Positions 7,451-46,437 of a DNA stretch of 64,000 bases are shown here, piece after piece (position 1 is the stretch's first letter; every line of letters begins with the position of its first letter). The position numbers and the translations under genes were made by a program. The notes below the pieces were generated by a model. It saw only the letters and a list, made by a program, of their open reading frames with translations, did no database searches and was not told where the DNA came from. The DNA comes from Eledone cirrhosa (lineage: Eukaryota), in contig OZ024745.1 in assembly GCA_964016885.1 (NCBI GenBank), positions 45,880,001 to 45,944,000 of the forward strand. Direction: 5' to 3'.

Positions 7451-10295
7451 CTGGTTGATATGTTTCTTTATTAGCCACAGGGGCACAAAAGAGGGAGACA
7501 AATACAAAGGGGGAAGTTTACATACAATAAAAACGTGTAAAATATTATCAGAAATGCAATTTAAAAATTAATCGATTTTCCCCAATAGGGGGAGACATTA
7601 CATATGGGTAACACATACCCCCGAAAAAAAAATGTGCAACCCTCATCTCCAGGAGTACGAAGAGTTTGTACTCCTTTCCTCTCCTCCTCTTTTTCGTCAA
7701 CCTACAGGTTGATATAGAGAGAAGGCTCATTCACTCGGGCCATTCTCGCCACATTCACCCACCTTTCATAAAACTTACTGGGGTACAGCACCTCTCTCTC
7801 CATCCTGATTCTTCTTCCAAAGTGGTTTTTGAAAAAAAGAATCAGTTGTTGGCTGGAGAGAAAGGTGTCTGACCTCAGCCCTTTCAACCTTGTCCACCAT
7901 ACAACCTCTTTCGCCATAGCTATCACACAAAGGAAAACCGCCTCTCCTTCCTTTTTGAAGGAGGGTGGCGGTTTGATCATGACAATGGACTCGGTGGTCA
8001 ACTGGATTGGTCCCACCCGCGACAATAGTCGTTCCACATAGCCCCACAGGTCGGTGACGCCCGGGCAGTGTATGAATGCGTGGGCTACAGTTTCTTCGTC
8101 TCGTACACACCTCGGACAGATCTTTTTTGCAGGGTCCCTGCGCGGGCGCCCATGTCTGTAGAGCTTGTCTCGAACTGGTAGAGCTCCTCGGTAGCACTGC
8201 CAGGCCAGGGACTTTTGGAAGTTGTCCATCGGTCCCTGGCGGAAGGCCCTACCGAACAGACCTGCCAGTTCGTCTTCCTCTACGCCCAGAGTTTCACCGA
8301 GCGCATCGTCGCACTTGCTGCGGATCAACCCTCTATAGAATGATGAAGTGGAGTCTCCACTGATCGCTGGGTCCGCCTGCCAGAGGGCTGTGAGTGCCTG
8401 AGCACATTCGATGTGCCAGTCGCCCATTTTCCTCGGTCTTTGCTTGACCCAGGACTGCAGCTTGGTCAGCGAGACGAGTTGTGGGAAGGCTCGTTCACGA
8501 ACGGGGCCCACACCGGTTGTCCGGTGAGTGAGGAATACGTAGAGATACCGCAGCCTAAGCGCGTATTTGCGCATCGTCAGCCACGGCAACCCCAGCCCTC
8601 CGTTGGAAGGGCGTTGGCAGCAGATGGATCTTCTCACCAAAGGAGCCCGCCTCTTCCAAAGGAATTGGAAGAGCGCGCTCTCTATTTTGGCGCGCGTTTT
8701 GGCTGGACAAGGCACGACGGTCAAGCGGTAGTAGATGGCGGACGCTATAAAAGTGTTCGCCACCTCCGCTCGACCTTTCAATGATAGTTTGCACTCGGTC
8801 CACTTCTGGGTGAGTGCAAACACCTTGGCCGACACCTCGTTCCAGTTCTTCTCCACCTGGAGGTCCGGACCAAACCAGACCCCGAGCAGCTTTACCGGTC
8901 CTACCGTCCAGCGTCCGACGACGCCATCGGAAGGCATCGGTTTGCCTCTCCACGATCCGAGTTGCAAACCGATGGACTTGTCCCAGTTCAGCTTCGCTCC
9001 TGTGAACCTTTCGTATTCCTTCAGTAAGGTGCCGACTTCCTCGATTTGCGAGGCGCTCGACACCATTACTGTCACGTCTTCGGCGTAGGCCGACGCTGCT
9101 TTCCGCAGTCCCGGTTCCAAAGGGATGCCCTGCAATAGCTCCAACTACCGCAGTAGTGGCTCGAGAGTCAGTACGTACAGAAGGGAAGAGGGAGGGCATC
9201 CCTGTCGAATGGATCGCGTGATATGGAACGGCTCCGAGAGGTAGCCGTTCACCTTAACCCTTGAGCAGATGTTGCTGTTATGCATTGCAACAATCCCGCC
9301 CCTGAACACGGGTCCGAAGACTGCCGCCTCGAGCACCGCATCCAGGTAACGATGGTCAACCCTATCGAAAGCCTTAGACTGATCCAAGTTGATCAGGGCT
9401 CCACCGAAGCCGGGTTTACACCCTACCCTCTCTATGATGTATCGCATGGGGTGGATGTTGTCGTGTATGGACCTGGTCGGGATTGCGCATGTCTGTGCTT
9501 CTCCCACCAGGTTCTCGACGACAAGCGCCAGCCTCTTTGCCAACACCTTGGCCAAAATCTGTAACTCTGTGTTTAGCAGAGTTATGGGCCGGAAGTTGCC
9601 TATGTCATCCCCCTTATTCTCGTCCTTCCTGACTAGTGTGACTACGCCCCCGGTCACAGAACTGGGAATTCTCCCGTTCTGTTGCCAGTTGCAGTAGACC
9701 GCTTCCAGGAGACCGGAGAATAAGTCCGGCATTGCTACGTAAAATTCGTAGGGTAGACCGTCGAGACCTGGAGATTTGCGTTTTCCGCATTGGCTCAACG
9801 CGTCCCCTATCTCAGCGGCTGAAATCGGCTTTTTGCAGAACTTTGCCTCGCTGTCCGAGAGTCGCGGTAGGCCGTCGAGGTATGGACCGAAATCCATAGA
9901 CCCTCCCGGCGCGCCGCCCTGCCCGAACAGCTGAGCCAAGTGCCGCTGAAAGGCCGCACACATCTGCTTCGGCTCACGTATCACGCGTCCGTTTTGGTCC
10001 TTCAAAGACCGAATAGTGGACTTGTTGCCACTTTTTGCCTCCGTCACTCGGGCCCAGCTAACAGCTTTGACTCCCTCGTTTCCCAGAGCACGTATTTTGC
10101 ATCTGACAACGCAGCCCTCATGCTTTGCGTCGAAGAACTGGTCCAAGGCCGTTCTCGTTGCTAGCACGCTGGCTACGTTGCCACTTCTAATTGCTTCTTC
10201 TACTTTATCTACCAGTTCTTTCTCGGTTCTATTTCTATCTAACGCTAATTCTTTACTAAAAACTAACGAGTCTAATCTAACTGCCCTCTTGAGAG
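7451..10295 (-). mobile_element. 5'-truncated Tx1/L1-clade non-LTR retrotransposon
   Basis: GC-rich block with RT and CCHC domains; ~250-bp 3' UTR with AATAAA (plus-strand TTTATT at 7467-7472) 16 nt from the end; both ends abut (TAGG)n. Confidence 0.9.
7702..10290 (-). pseudogene. LINE ORF2 remnant (linker + reverse transcriptase + zf-RVT zinc knuckle); in-frame TAG at 9145-9147; endonuclease domain lost
   Basis: Motifs KSPGLDGLPYEFY, NFRPITLLN, LDQSKAFDRVDH, IRQGCPPS, AYAEDV (YADD mutated), VKLLGVWF, GGLGLP, CPRC-x8-H-x4-C. ORFs 9145..10167 and 7702..9144 are in the same frame, which stays open upstream to the truncation point ([18 protein letters not shown]...). Confidence 0.92.
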
Positions 10296-15904: not shown

Positions 15905-15938
<34 letters not shown>

Positions 15939-16058
15939 TATAGACATAGAATATTCGAAAATATTCTGTATGTTTATAATAAACATTTTGAAGACCTAAT
16001 CGCTATAGAATAGAATACGTCACGTATTACAATTAGATTCTCGATAAAAGCAAGGGAA

Positions 16059-16101
16059 GTAATCTACGCGTTTCATTCTTATTAGAAATCTTCAGGACTA
16101 C
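16059..16101 (-). ncRNA. Minimal type-I hammerhead ribozyme, copy 1
   Basis: Reverse complement of gtagtc CTGAAGA tttctaataagaat GAAA cgcg TA gattac. Confidence 0.8.
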
Positions 16102-16368
16102 ATATCCAGTGCTTTTATCGAGAATGACACAGCTAGAGACTTATAGAATACTTAGCTGTGTACAGGAACTGGTTTGAAAGAGCGGTTGCCGGTCCGGCAG
16201 AAATTAGAAATTGGAATAAATGCTCTGAAATAGCGATATATATGTGAATATAGACATAGAATATTCGAAAATATTCTGTATGTTTATAATAAACATTTTG
16301 AAGACCTAATCGCTATAGAATAGAATACGTCACGTATTACAATTAGATTCTCGATAAAAGCAAGGGAA

Positions 16369-16411
16369 GTAATCTACGCGTTTCATTCTTATTAGAAATC
16401 TTCAGGACTAC
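16369..16411 (-). ncRNA. Minimal type-I hammerhead ribozyme, copy 2
   Basis: Identical motif 310 bp downstream of copy 1. Confidence 0.8.
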
Positions 16412-16860
16412 ATATCCAGTGCTTTTATCGAGAATGACACAGCTAGAGACTTATAGAATACTTAGCTGTGTACAGGAACTGGTTTGAAAGAGCGGTTGCC
16501 GGTCCGGCAGAAATTAGAAATTGGAATAAATGCTCTGAAATAGCGATATATATGTGAATATAGACATAGAATATTCGAAAATATTCTGTATGTTTATAAT
16601 AAACATTTTGAAGACCTAATCGCTATAGAATAGAATACGTCACGTATTACAATTAGATTCTCAAAATGTTTATTATAAACATACAGAATATTTTCGAATA
16701 TTCTATGTCTATATTCACATATATATCGCTATTTCAGAGCATTTATTCCAATTTCTAATTTCTGCCGGACCGGCAACCGCTCTTTCAAACCAGTTCCTGT
16801 ACACAGCTAAGTATTCTATAAGTCTCTAGCTGTGTCATTCTCGATAAAAGCACTGGATAT

Positions 16861-16903
16861 GTAGTCCTGAAGATTTCTAATAAGAATGAAACGCGTAGAT
16901 TAC
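16861..16903 (+). ncRNA. Minimal type-I hammerhead ribozyme, copy 3
   Basis: Stem I GTAGTC/GATTAC; core CTGAAGA 16867-16873; stem II TTCT/AGAA with AATA loop and a U.U closing mismatch; GAAA 16888-16891; palindromic ACGCGT; predicted cleavage after A16897 (GUA). Confidence 0.8.
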
Positions 16904-17170
16904 TTCCCTTGCTTTTATCGAGAATTTAATTGTAATACGTGACGTATTCTATTCTATAGCGATTAGGTCTTCAAAATGTTTATTATAAACATACAGAATA
17001 TTTTCGAATATTCTATGTCTATATTCACATATATATCGCTATTTCAGAGCATTTATTCCAATTTCTAATTCCTGCCGGACCGGCAACCGCTCTTTCAAAC
17101 CAGTTCCTGTACACAGCTAAGTATTCTATAAGTCTCTAGCTGTGTCATTCTCGATAAAAGCACTGGATAT

Positions 17171-17213
17171 GTAGTCCTGAAGATTTCTAATAAGAATGAA
17201 ACGCGTAGATTAC
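17171..17213 (+). ncRNA. Minimal type-I hammerhead ribozyme, copy 4
   Basis: Identical to copy 3. Confidence 0.8.
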
Positions 17214-17480
17214 TTCCCTTGCTTTTATCGAGAATCTAATTGTAATACGTGACGTATTCTATTCTATAGCGATTAGGTCTTCAAAATGTTTATTATAAAC
17301 ATACAGAATATTTTCGAATATTCTATGTCTATATTCACATATATATCGCTATTTCAGAGCATTTATTCCAATTTCTAATTTCTGCCGGACCGGCAACCGC
17401 TCTTTCAAACCAGTTCCTGTACACAGCTAAGTATTCTATAAGTCTCTAGCTGTGTCATTCTCGATAAAAGCACTGGATAT

Positions 17481-17523
17481 GTAGTCCTGAAGATTTCTAA
17501 TAAGAATGAAACGCGTAGATTAC
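17481..17523 (+). ncRNA. Minimal type-I hammerhead ribozyme, copy 5
   Basis: Identical to copy 3. Confidence 0.8.
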
Positions 17524-17790
17524 TTCCCTTGCTTTTATCGAGAATCTAATTGTAATACGTGACGTATTCTATTCTATAGCGATTAGGTCTTCAAAATGTT
17601 TATTATAAACATACAGAATATTTTCGAATATTCTATGTCTATATTCACATATATATCGCTATTTCAGAGCATTTATTCCAATTTCTAATTTCTGCCGGAC
17701 CGGCAACCGCTCTTTCAAACCAGTTCCTGTACACAGCTAAGTATTCTATAAGTCTCTAGCTGTGTCATTCTCGATAAAAGCACTGGATAT

Positions 17791-17833
17791 GTAGTCCTGA
17801 AGATTTCTAATAAGAATGAAACCCGTAGATTAC
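17791..17833 (+). ncRNA. Minimal type-I hammerhead, copy 6 (stem III palindrome broken, ACGCGT to ACCCGT)
   Basis: G to C at 17823. Confidence 0.7.
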
Positions 17834-17991
17834 TTCCCTTGCTTTTATCGAGAATCTAATTGTAATACGTGACGTATTCTATTCTATAGCGATTAGGTCT
17901 TCAAAATGTTTATTATAAACATACAGAATATTTTCGAATATTCTATGTCTATATTCACATATATATCGCTATTTCAGAGCATTTATTCCAA

Positions 17992-18047
<56 letters not shown>

Positions 18048-28687: not shown

Positions 28688-29096
28688 TTATCGTTACTAG
28701 CAGAAAAACCACCCTTCGGCTGGTTTTCTGCTAGCATGTGTAGTGTGCATATTGATATTATATGCAAGTATATATATATACATGTAGATATGATACATGA
28801 AATAAAATCGTAATTGACAATATATACAGAAATTGAACGTAGACTGCGTTACACTGTCTTATGTAATCAGTAACGTAATCCATGATACATTTTAAAAAAG
28901 ACGATATTATATATAAACTGCATTAGGAGAAAATTAGTGACGCCAATATATGAATGTTTATTTAAGCGATCGCTAACCGGAAGTGTTGATATTTGAACAT
29001 TTTAAAGAAGTGAATCTTTAAATAAGTAATAAAATATATTTAATCAACAGCCACGAAATTTAGTAGATAAATTATGTAATATTCATTCATTATTTA

Positions 29097-29320
29097 TTCA
29101 AATCCCGCCGAGATTGACTTTGCCTTTCATCCTTACGGGGTCGATAAAATAAAGTACCAGTAATGCACTGGGTAATTGCTGGCCTTGTGCCTAAAATAGA
29201 AACAATTATTTATTCAAAGTAAAGAGTTAACTTTGCCTTTCATCCTTACGGTGTCGATAAAATAAAGTACCAGTAATCTACTGGGTAATTGCTGGCCTTG
29301 TGCCAAAAGTAGAAACAATT
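29097..29320 (+). mobile_element. Two tandem 5'-truncated SINE family A copies
   Basis: ~29097-29205 and ~29224-29318; flanking repeat ATTATTTATTCA. Confidence 0.88.
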
Positions 29321-30053
29321 AGTTATTCGAAGTAATCCAACTTATTTTAGTAATGGGATAAAAAATTATAAACCGTACGCAATCCCGCGCTCCTTACTTT
29401 ATTATAGTTTAGATTTACATTCGCTGGACTTGATTTAGTCACAAATTATTTAGAGGTTGATTTCTTTTTATAATTTCAGTTTTTGAATAATACCAGTAAT
29501 GTATTACTGTTGAATTTTTCGTTTACATTATCTCCCTTTATAAAAACTGACATAAAATCATAAACCAAAACAAATCTATATTGGTGTTATTAGTTTCGCC
29601 TTCATCGTGTTATCTTTCTTTGTGTGATATTATTATTTCATGTTTAGTTTTTAAACTGGTTCTATTTTCTCACCTTTGAGCTTAGGATGATCCTGAACTC
29701 AGGATGAACCTGAGTTCAAATGTGAAACTCCAGAATAATAACACTCATCACTTAATCATAATAAAGAATATTGAAAATCATCTTCAGAATTGAGTACTCT
29801 TTCTTGCGTTTGTCATTATTGCACGAATATATATATATATATGTGTGTGTGCGCGTGTGTGTGTGTGTGTGTGTGTGTGCGTGTGTGTGCGTGTGTGTGT
29901 GTATAATATATATATATAGAGAGAGAGAGAGGGGGGACACATGTGTGTGTGTGTGTGTACATATATACACACTACATACATATGTGCCTGTGTATGTGTG
30001 CATATTTTCTTTTTTGTATTATTTTTCTAACTTTTCCTGGATATCTTTACCAT

Positions 30054-35409: not shown

Positions 35410-36317
35410 TAATGGTTTCTACATTTGGCACAAGGCCAGCAATTATCCCAGTGCATTACTGGTACTTTATTTTATCGACCCCCGTTAGGATGAAAGGCAA
35501 AGTTAACCTCGGCGGGATTTGAACTCAGAATGGCAAGGGCCGTAACTCTATACGTCAAAGCATGGCGTCCGACCCTCTACCGATACTGTCAATCCACCGC
35601 GTCGCTCTAATAATTGTTTCTACTTTTTGGCACAAGGCCAGCAATTATCCCAGTACATTACTGGTACTTTATTTTATCGACCCCATAAGGATGAAAAGCA
35701 AAGTTAACCTCAGCGGGATTTGAACTCAGACCATAAAGGGCCGTCTCTAATAATGGTTTCTTATATAGGTACAAGGCCAGTAATTTGGGGAGAGGGAGAA
35801 GTCGATTAAATCGACCTCAGTGCGTAACTGGTACTTTATTTTATCGACCCCATAAGGATGAAAGGCAAAGTTAACCTCGGCGGGATTTGAGCTCAGGCCG
35901 TCTCTAATAATTGTTTCTACTTTAGGCACAAGGCCAGCAATTACCCAGTGCATTACTGGTACTTTATTTTATCGACCCCGTAAGGATGAAAGGTAAAGTC
36001 AACCTCGGCGGGATTTGAACTCAGATCGTAAAGGGACGTAACTGTGCTGCAAAGCAAGGCGTCCGACCCTCTACCAATACTGCCAATCCACCGCCCTCAG
36101 GCCGTCTCTAATAATTGTTTCTACTTTTGACACAAGGCCAGCAATTACCCAGTGATATTACTGGTACTTTATTTTATCGACCCCGTAAGGATGAAAGGCA
36201 AAGTTAACCTCGGCGGGATTTGAACTCAGACCGTAAAGGGACGTAACTATGTTGGAAAGCATGTCCGACTCTCTACCAATACTGCCAATTGACCGCCCTC
36301 AGGCCGTCTCTAATAAT
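35410..36317 (-). mobile_element. Stack of five head-to-tail SINE family A copies
   Basis: Copies at ~35410-35600, 35612-35743, 35753-35896, 35911-36097 and 36115-36298, separated by the recurring linker (CTCAG)GCCGTCTCTAATAAT. Confidence 0.92.
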
Positions 36318-36758
36318 GATATCTAATTTTATCCGACGCTGTACCGACTGTACTGATAATTCACTACCGTAATGGAAATAATGATTACATGACTACTATG
36401 AATGATTGGTGGGGAAATCGGGTAAAATACCCTTAGAGAAGGAGAAAAAGCAGAAGAGTCGTTCAGCGTAGGGATTAAAGTTCTCGTCTCCATCCGGGAG
36501 ATAAGGGGTTCGATTCCGCGCAGGCGTTTCTGTCCCAGGCTATGTTCTCAACAATTATTTATAGTGATCGACTCATATTTGTATTTGAAGGTCCTTGTAT
36601 TTACTGAGTTTCCTAGATGTACAGTCTACGGATACTGACGCGCTTATGCTTTGAAACCTAAGGTAGAGTTATACACGTTACGCGTATGAATCAGCTCAAT
36701 TTCATTAGATAGAGCTCTCTTTTCCTTTTTCCTCCCTACAGATCTTTTCACTATATGC

Positions 36759-46314: not shown

Positions 46315-46437
46315 TGCTTATAGCACCTAGGTCTCCCAATCAAGCGTTCACCCATCTAAGTACTGACTAGGCTCGACGTTTCTTTACTTCAGTGATCGGA
46401 CGAGAACCGGTGTTTTCAGCGTGATGTGGCCGTCGAA
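46315..46437 (-). pseudogene. 5S rRNA: 5S rRNA-derived sequence, probable pseudogene, with a T10 terminator (46305-46314)
   Basis: Minus strand: acggccacatcacgctgaaaacaccggttctcgtccgatcactgaagtaaag..cgtcgagcctagtcagtacttagatgggtga..tgggaga cctaggtgctataagca; matches metazoan 5S with substitutions and a small insertion. Confidence 0.88.

Follow-up and report, generated by a model that had tools for sequence, protein, structure and literature searches.

The locus described here raises the question of what a 310-nt tandem unit built around a hammerhead ribozyme is, and whether its fold has a part in how it came to lie in the genome. An earlier note on the same DNA had proposed that the unit folds almost entirely into hairpins, with the ribozyme at the tip of a 16-bp clamp that would keep the monomer ends together for ligation into a branched, viroid-like circle. 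Judged from its sequence, the unit is a non-LTR retrozyme of the animal type bearing a type I hammerhead; this type of element is already known, and the sequence family, hereafter family A, is new. We consider it probable that family A is a retrozyme with a covarying clamp, whose RNA, predicted to self-cleave, likely circularises and is likely copied by a Penelope-like enzyme into (TA)n.

Within the window, the whole stretch of 64,000 nt that was analysed, the element has a minus-strand arm of 2.4 units and a plus-strand arm of 4.3, bounded by two (TA)n tracts. Unit positions are numbered from the predicted cleavage site, and the layout is as follows.

15907–15935, unstranded: left (TA)n flank, the target microsatellite (TRF and sequence)
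15926–16662, minus: left arm, 2.4 units with the 3′ end outward, stopping at unit position 130–139 (short end)
16661–16662, unstranded: inversion junction between the arms, with a 2-nt overlap (TC)
16661–17999, plus: right arm, 4.3 × 310 nt, stopping at unit position 172 (long end)
17967–17999, plus: 33-nt "tail" (unit positions 140–172), restricted to the right arm's outer end; the Penelope tail is described in PMC8557442
17998–18046, unstranded: right (TA)n flank (TRF)

The tandem unit, 310 nt long with about 34% GC, falls within the retrozyme range (150–450 bp, GC below 50%), and the full units of the right arm each show 0–2 differences from the copy at 16971. The array overlaps no open reading frame of 200 aa or more and contains neither an LTR nor a coding frame, in keeping with retrozymes. 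Hammerhead cores, one per tandem unit, are found at 16867, 17177, 17487 and 17797 on the plus strand and at 16071 and 16381 on the minus strand; in the final complete hammerhead of the right arm, a G-to-C change at 17823 abolishes the helix III palindrome. Genome-wide, the core pattern has 18,795 exact matches versus 0 for the reversed control. Rfam microRNA matches at the E-value level were rejected as a product of the array's inversion. Elsewhere in the window, the sole Rfam match at gathering thresholds is a diverged copy of 5S rRNA at 46315–46437 on the minus strand (63.2 bits), probably a pseudogene, and a GC-rich segment (57%) at 7702–9253 on the minus strand has open frames of 480 and 232 aa and is possibly a retroelement fragment. 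Taken as a whole, the window is rich in microsatellites and may in this be octopus-like.

The structural features of one unit, all on the plus strand, are listed in order of position.

16666–16682, plus: ATGTTTA hairpin of 7 bp (strands at 16666 and 16676), with a 6-bp equivalent in the sister families B, C and D
16685–16704, plus: AGAATATT hairpin of 8 bp (strands at 16685 and 16697), 97% of alignment cells paired
16725–16783, plus: sequence-conserved module, where insertions end
16801–16835, plus: ACACAGCTA hairpin of 9 bp (strands at 16801 and 16827); families B and D have a hairpin there in another register and sequence
16837–16852, plus: 5′ strand of the clamp (outer helix I), 94.6% of cells paired
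16855–16866, plus: 5′ strand of helix I (3 bp, 3-nt bulge, 6 bp)
16867–16897, plus: core, with CUGAAGA, helix II (U.U at its base, AAUA loop), GAAA and a 2-bp helix III (sequence and fold)
16898–16907, plus: 3′ strand of helix I, the 5′ end of the predicted cleaved monomer
16910–16925, plus: 3′ strand of the clamp
16934–16948, plus: AATACGT hairpin of 6 bp (strands at 16934 and 16942); families B, C and D have a different hairpin in the same place
16956–16963, plus: 3′ strand of the closing helix, partner of 16725–16732, 97.5% of cells paired

The order of elements inside the clamp on the plus strand is that of the type I topology. Helix III lies within the palindrome ACGCGU, and the cut is predicted to fall after GUA at 16897. 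The Rfam model HH9 gives only weak matches, on two other copies (E 0.97 and 4.2); the minus strand of the unit has no hammerhead core, and the Rfam matches follow one polarity. Published work describes palindromic helices III as functioning poorly in monomers, with activity in double hammerheads (PMC4209133); axolotl HHR_Amex2 shares the basal U.U of helix II, and its cleavage is far more efficient in dimeric form (PMC7229834). By analogy with these two reports, the weak palindromic helix III together with the U.U in helix II would favour cutting in multimers, and this suggests that the family A ribozyme may cut best as a double hammerhead there and poorly in a lone circle. Weighing against the reading as a whole, only one of nine retrozyme dimers from Xenopus was cleaved in vitro (preprint 10.64898/2026.07.22.740005).

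All six complementary stems named in the earlier note were found where it had placed them (6/6), including the TGCCGG stem, whose strands lie at 16763 and 16770, and the clamp, which is complementary at 16/16 positions and encloses 57 nt around the hammerhead. In circular folding the unit reaches −67.8 kcal/mol, which none of 150 dinucleotide shuffles equals (z −4.91), and the linear fold likewise stands apart (z −5.11, 0/100 shuffles as good). The description of the unit as almost entirely hairpins was overstated: the paired fraction is 0.58, versus 0.55 ± 0.04 in shuffles, and the six named stems cover 102 of the 310 nt. Much of the folding signal is that of the clamp domain; for the remaining 221 nt z is only −2.4, with 4/200 shuffles as good. 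Two hairpins that had been drawn with 1-nt loops are impossible in that form, but they do form stems of 6 and 5 bp with 3-nt loops. The ATGTTTA hairpin is complementary as described but missing from the lowest-energy fold of family A, its equivalent being kept in the sister families. The minus strand folds as well as the plus strand (z −5.25), so that folding energy gives no polarity; the hammerhead does. Across eight monomers from four families the circular fold has z-scores from −3.4 to −7.2, and the stable predicted circle that characterises retrozymes is seen in family A and in its sister families too.

These sister families, B, C and D, are older; identity is 59–78% among all four families (A–D) and 86–97% within them. 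An alignment was built of 35 real copies from full-length monomers (12 A, 10 B, 8 C and 5 D), leaving out loci without a full monomer in the chosen phase, with the structure taken from family A. Covariation across the genomic copies is present: 93.3% of cells are paired, versus 34–47% with slid partners. Both-sided changes occur in 7/13 pairs of the clamp, 5/6 of proximal helix I, 3/4 of helix II and 2/8 of the AGAATATT hairpin, and, unprompted, RNAalifold arrives at the clamp, the helices of the hammerhead and the AGAATATT hairpin. The core pair 3–8 is C-G in families A (12/12) and B (8/10) and U-A in C (8/8) and D (5/5); the swap from C3-G8 to U3-A8 has been reported to occur naturally and to keep activity (PMC3088659). 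At least as many doubly changed pairs were obtained in 65/500 column shuffles, and four families provide few independent covariation events. The ACACAGCTA and AATACGT hairpins show no pair-for-pair conservation across families A–D.

A different pattern is seen in the primary sequence. The clamp strands keep 4/14 and 5/14 columns across the four family majorities, whereas the segment starting at unit position 138 is identical in 16/16 columns and the hairpin and helix that follow in 17/21. This segment begins the module at 16725–16783, which consists of the 5′ strand of the closing helix, an AGAGC/GCTCT helix, an open strand of 22 nt and a small GC hairpin. Across the families the clamp is conserved as structure only, and the segment at which insertions end in sequence; the clamp is under selection as RNA structure.

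In the fold, the clamp is helix I continued past a bulge and two small internal loops. The cleaved linear monomer is predicted to have its 5′ and 3′ ends paired by helix I and the clamp, with pair probabilities of 0.99–1.0 in helix I and 0.97–1.0 in 14/16 clamp pairs, and the clamp duplex contributes −21.3 kcal/mol versus −3.8 kcal/mol for proximal helix I alone. The proposal that the clamp holds the cleaved ends together is therefore borne out by the geometry of the model, but the clamp is simply an extended helix I, and such pairing is inherent to the type I topology. Given the compensating mutations in four related families, the long stem around the cutting site likely forms, and it would hold the cut ends for rejoining. 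Circles of published animal retrozymes form mainly via the RtcB ligase (over 80% in axolotl, about 30% in mussel), with self-ligation at 3% in axolotl and about 1% in mussel (PMC7229834); ligation favoured by the clamp is plausible, and the idea is largely anticipated in the literature. The term "viroid-like" fits the shape and size of the circle but not its single hammerhead polarity, nor a genomic retroelement with insertions of the Penelope type.

The insertions themselves have a regular footprint. Of a first sample, 17 loci in positional order on C1, 12 have two clear arms whose 3′ ends face outward; the rest are one 33-nt inverted piece, three single-armed insertions and one cut by a gap. 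In 12/12 of the two-armed loci an end at unit position 139 is paired with one at 163–170. At least 1,015 insertions in the genome have an exact junction at the 165 end, and a second sample of 60 regions (61 insertions) was drawn from them. In this sample, chosen by the 165 end, the opposite arm ends at 138–139 in 55/61 insertions; of the other six, two run past the region edge, three consist of a single arm and in one an arm is very short. At the short end the exact position is ambiguous between 130 and 139, and a TA tract replaces C131 in 26/57 junctions, which fits annealing of (TA)n across one mismatch. The long end lies within a strand predicted to be open (unpaired probability 0.82). The inner junctions between the arms vary, often with short microhomology, and the outer ends are fixed. 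Arms extend up to 24–27 units, and at one locus (L041) both ends lie at 172. Arms that apparently stopped at the cleavage site proved to be an artefact of the BLAST filter.

Penelope elements are described as having an inverted copy, a one-sided tail of 30–40 bp and a bias for (TA)n (PMC8557442), and family A shows the same set of an inverted 5′-truncated arm, a one-sided tail and a microsatellite target. Open reading frames for reverse transcriptase and GIY-YIG endonuclease occur in the genome, with 4/9 of those scanned carrying both, and some are inverted and TA-flanked. No autonomous Penelope partner sharing sequence with the unit, pLTR included, was found among 40 loci (of the 150 listed GIY-YIG matches, 32 were retrieved).

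Several neighbouring kinds of insertion were seen along the way. At L035 (C14, ~25.26 Mb) several same-strand arrays have identical ends (170 to 257) with TA tracts between them; this is a higher-order duplication of a whole insertion. At L120:1900–6140 an inverted pair of 5′-truncated Penelope ORFs lies in (TA)n with a motif resembling a minimal hammerhead; the TA tracts lie 542 and 602 nt beyond the stop codons, and the architecture is the same as that of the retrozyme, but coding. A second retrozyme family of 466–470 nt, with a canonical core and a minus-then-plus arrangement, occurs at L128, L131, L132 and L135; the canonical-core pattern has 13,478 matches, spread over this family and others. 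A TA-flanked non-coding element with a closely similar hammerhead core (the same U.U at the helix II base) is present at L126:7995–8205, L127:5130–5335, L128:8585–8790 and L201–L220, in short insertions that are inverted and carry a tail of ~80 nt. Exchange of a ribozyme module between this element and the retrozyme is possible; at L201–L220 it has no upstream ORF on its own strand.

Whether the arms were copied from one template or from many can be approached through their variants. Both arms have the same hammerhead haplotype in 46/47 loci, versus a mean of 10 and a maximum of 21 in 10,000 shuffles, and the median within an arm is 0 differences. Across 55 insertions with 159 rank-matched units, 51 minority variants are confined to one arm, and mirrored variants are found in one locus. 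At this locus (L257:1290–7691, C1, ~136.72 Mb) the two outer units of each arm have one haplotype and the inner units another, and the two arms switch at equal rank. The pattern points to a mixed template common to both arms or to a coordinated jump between templates; one monomeric circle cannot produce a same-rank switch of this kind. Several long arrays have variants shared among only some of their units, which points to tandem expansion at a later stage. The haplotype data fit repeated copying of one homogeneous template, for example a monomer circle. Much the same picture would be expected from the transcript of a uniform, young array, and from L257 and the subset-shared variants it is clear that other routes occur.

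Two biases in the variants were considered and set aside. A-to-I editing is unsupported: locus-fixed A>G versus T>C changes stood at 8 to 1 in the first sample, but in the 60 new regions at 9 to 4 overall and at 6 to 3 among rare variants (p 0.17). Reverse transcriptase error bias did not replicate, singleton T>C versus A>G changes being 13 to 1 and then 12 to 13. An excess of C>T singletons falls mostly at position 131, the primer junction (27 cases).

The cycle that we propose for family A would begin with transcription of tandem units, followed by self-cleavage of the multimers by the hammerheads after GUA. Helix I and the clamp, predicted to pair and backed by covariation, would keep the ends together and, by analogy, an RtcB-type host ligase would seal them. 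A Penelope endonuclease, the presumed enzyme, would then open (TA)n; one target end would prime on the AU-repeat at unit positions 130–139, its counterpart within the open strand at 163–172, each being extended by 0.2 to more than 20 units over one homogeneous and presumably circular template. The two cDNAs would be joined at a point that varies, frequently through short microhomology, to give the back-to-back arms. A more specific version, which we advance tentatively and rate at slightly under an even chance, is that the circle has two parts: the clamp and hammerhead, constrained by pairing alone and at liberty to vary in sequence, which would make and close the monomer, and unit positions 138–196, whose sequence would be constrained by service as a docking site for the Penelope RT-endonuclease with two-site priming. 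If so, both DNA ends would be primed 26–33 nt apart on one circle around which the enzyme rolls, and two-site priming would directly produce the inverted arm and tail of Penelope, a record of which could be read in more than 1,000 insertions.

The same element and enzyme might instead use a linear multimer, or jump between cleaved monomers, with the clamp mainly aiding the folding of the ribozyme. We judge this unlikely. The same-rank haplotype switch in both arms of L257 speaks for it, multimers might escape cleavage because of the weak helix III (PMC7229834), and young donor arrays, being near-homogeneous, would be expected to give few mirrored variants; yet 54/55 insertions lack a mirrored variant over 159 rank-overlapping units, arms reach 24–27 units, and arrays are not mosaics even with at least six common hammerhead haplotypes available. 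Very improbable is an ordinary satellite, grown from single units by unequal crossover, with the inversion a later rearrangement and the fold a leftover. Against such an origin are the fixed outer ends (139 with 163–172) beside variable inner junctions in both samples, the (TA)n at both arm ends, and compensatory changes, in the clamp and in the catalytic core alike, that imply the RNA is under selection, although long arrays with subset-shared variants, and the local amplification model of a recent preprint (10.64898/2026.07.22.740005), are in its favour.

The least probable reading is a viroid-like circle that replicates from RNA to RNA, perhaps moves between organisms and is occasionally captured in the genome. 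Such a circle would have the size, circular fold and ribozyme seen here, and cloned mussel retrozyme circles were unmatched by database copies (PMC7229834), but the hammerhead has a single polarity, thousands of insertions bear the footprints of retrotransposition, and this one genome contains layers of families that differ in age (86–97% identity within each). Horizontal or infectious spread was dropped as a candidate. The unit was matched in 20 runs from 17 studies under many organism labels, 4/20 runs being examined, and no RNA data set was listed among the matches; three runs under other organism labels each contain one unit-length contig together with an unrelated repeat of the window (333, 67 and 17 contigs), and this co-occurrence led us to read the matches as traces of host DNA or of related species. 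The repeat, very abundant and dispersed, is found as tandem pieces at 29080–29335 and 35760–36340, served as the control for host-DNA traces, and is presumably SINE-like. A contig of unit length can come from a tandem array just as from a circle.

Set beside known systems, family A shows each non-LTR retrozyme trait that sequence and predicted fold allow to be assessed. Members of the Avsunviroidae have hammerheads in both polarities and no DNA counterpart, and replicate from RNA to RNA. Family A resembles them in size, in its branched predicted circle and in its hammerhead, and differs in having one polarity, in being genome-encoded, in a ribozyme unmasked by complementary sequence and in spread by reverse transcription; of the two viroid hallmarks, hammerheads in both polarities are lacking, and the absence of a DNA counterpart is contradicted by at least 1,015 genomic insertions with the 165 end.

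The non-LTR retrozymes of coral, mussel and axolotl, as described in PMC7229834, are alike in their type I hammerhead in each tandem unit of 150–450 bp, GC below 50%, lack of LTR and ORF, stable predicted circle and ribozyme free to fold, and axolotl HHR_Amex2 has the same U.U at the base of helix II and a two-pair helix III. That paper's main text uses neither "inverted" nor "microsatellite"; family A adds two-armed insertions, fixed ends, (TA)n targets and covariation. Cleavage and circles were shown experimentally for the published elements, whereas family A is known from sequence and predicted fold. In the published accounts available to us, copying of animal retrozyme circles by Penelope is proposed, not shown, and the circle structures rest on energy prediction; in family A the fold gains comparative support from compensatory changes in the clamp, in helices I and II, in a further hairpin and in the catalytic pair. 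Vertebrate retrozymes (Li, Clavereau and Pollet 2026, 10.64898/2026.07.22.740005) interpreted as Penelope derivatives, likewise have type I hammerheads in tandem units and co-occurring Penelope-like elements; the preprint proposes local tandem amplification, and its link to Penelope is pLTR homology, that of family A being the insertion footprint. Our literature search, mostly of non-subscription texts with supplements excluded, found no report of cephalopod retrozymes, of family A or of two-armed retrozyme insertions.

The closest parallel to the insertions is with EN+ Penelope-like elements, which are described as having an inverted 5′-truncated copy, (TA)n targets and a type I hammerhead with palindromic helix III (PMC8557442, PMC4209133). 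The tail at one end is 26–33 nt in family A versus 30–40 bp in EN+ Penelope (PMC8557442); family A, unlike these elements, is without an ORF and has many-copy arms of 310-nt tandem units, and its hammerhead is of canonical size with a long helix I, versus the minimal form in Penelope (PMC4209133). An in vitro system has been called for to explain the inverted and tandem insertions of Penelope (PMC8557442). The short conserved segment at which both DNA ends would be primed in family A would provide a small, defined substrate for tests of Penelope priming and of rolling-circle copying. The present analysis contributes the helix-by-helix covariation, the contrast between conservation of structure only and of sequence, the analysis of mirrored variants, and the negative outcomes for editing and for spread across organisms.
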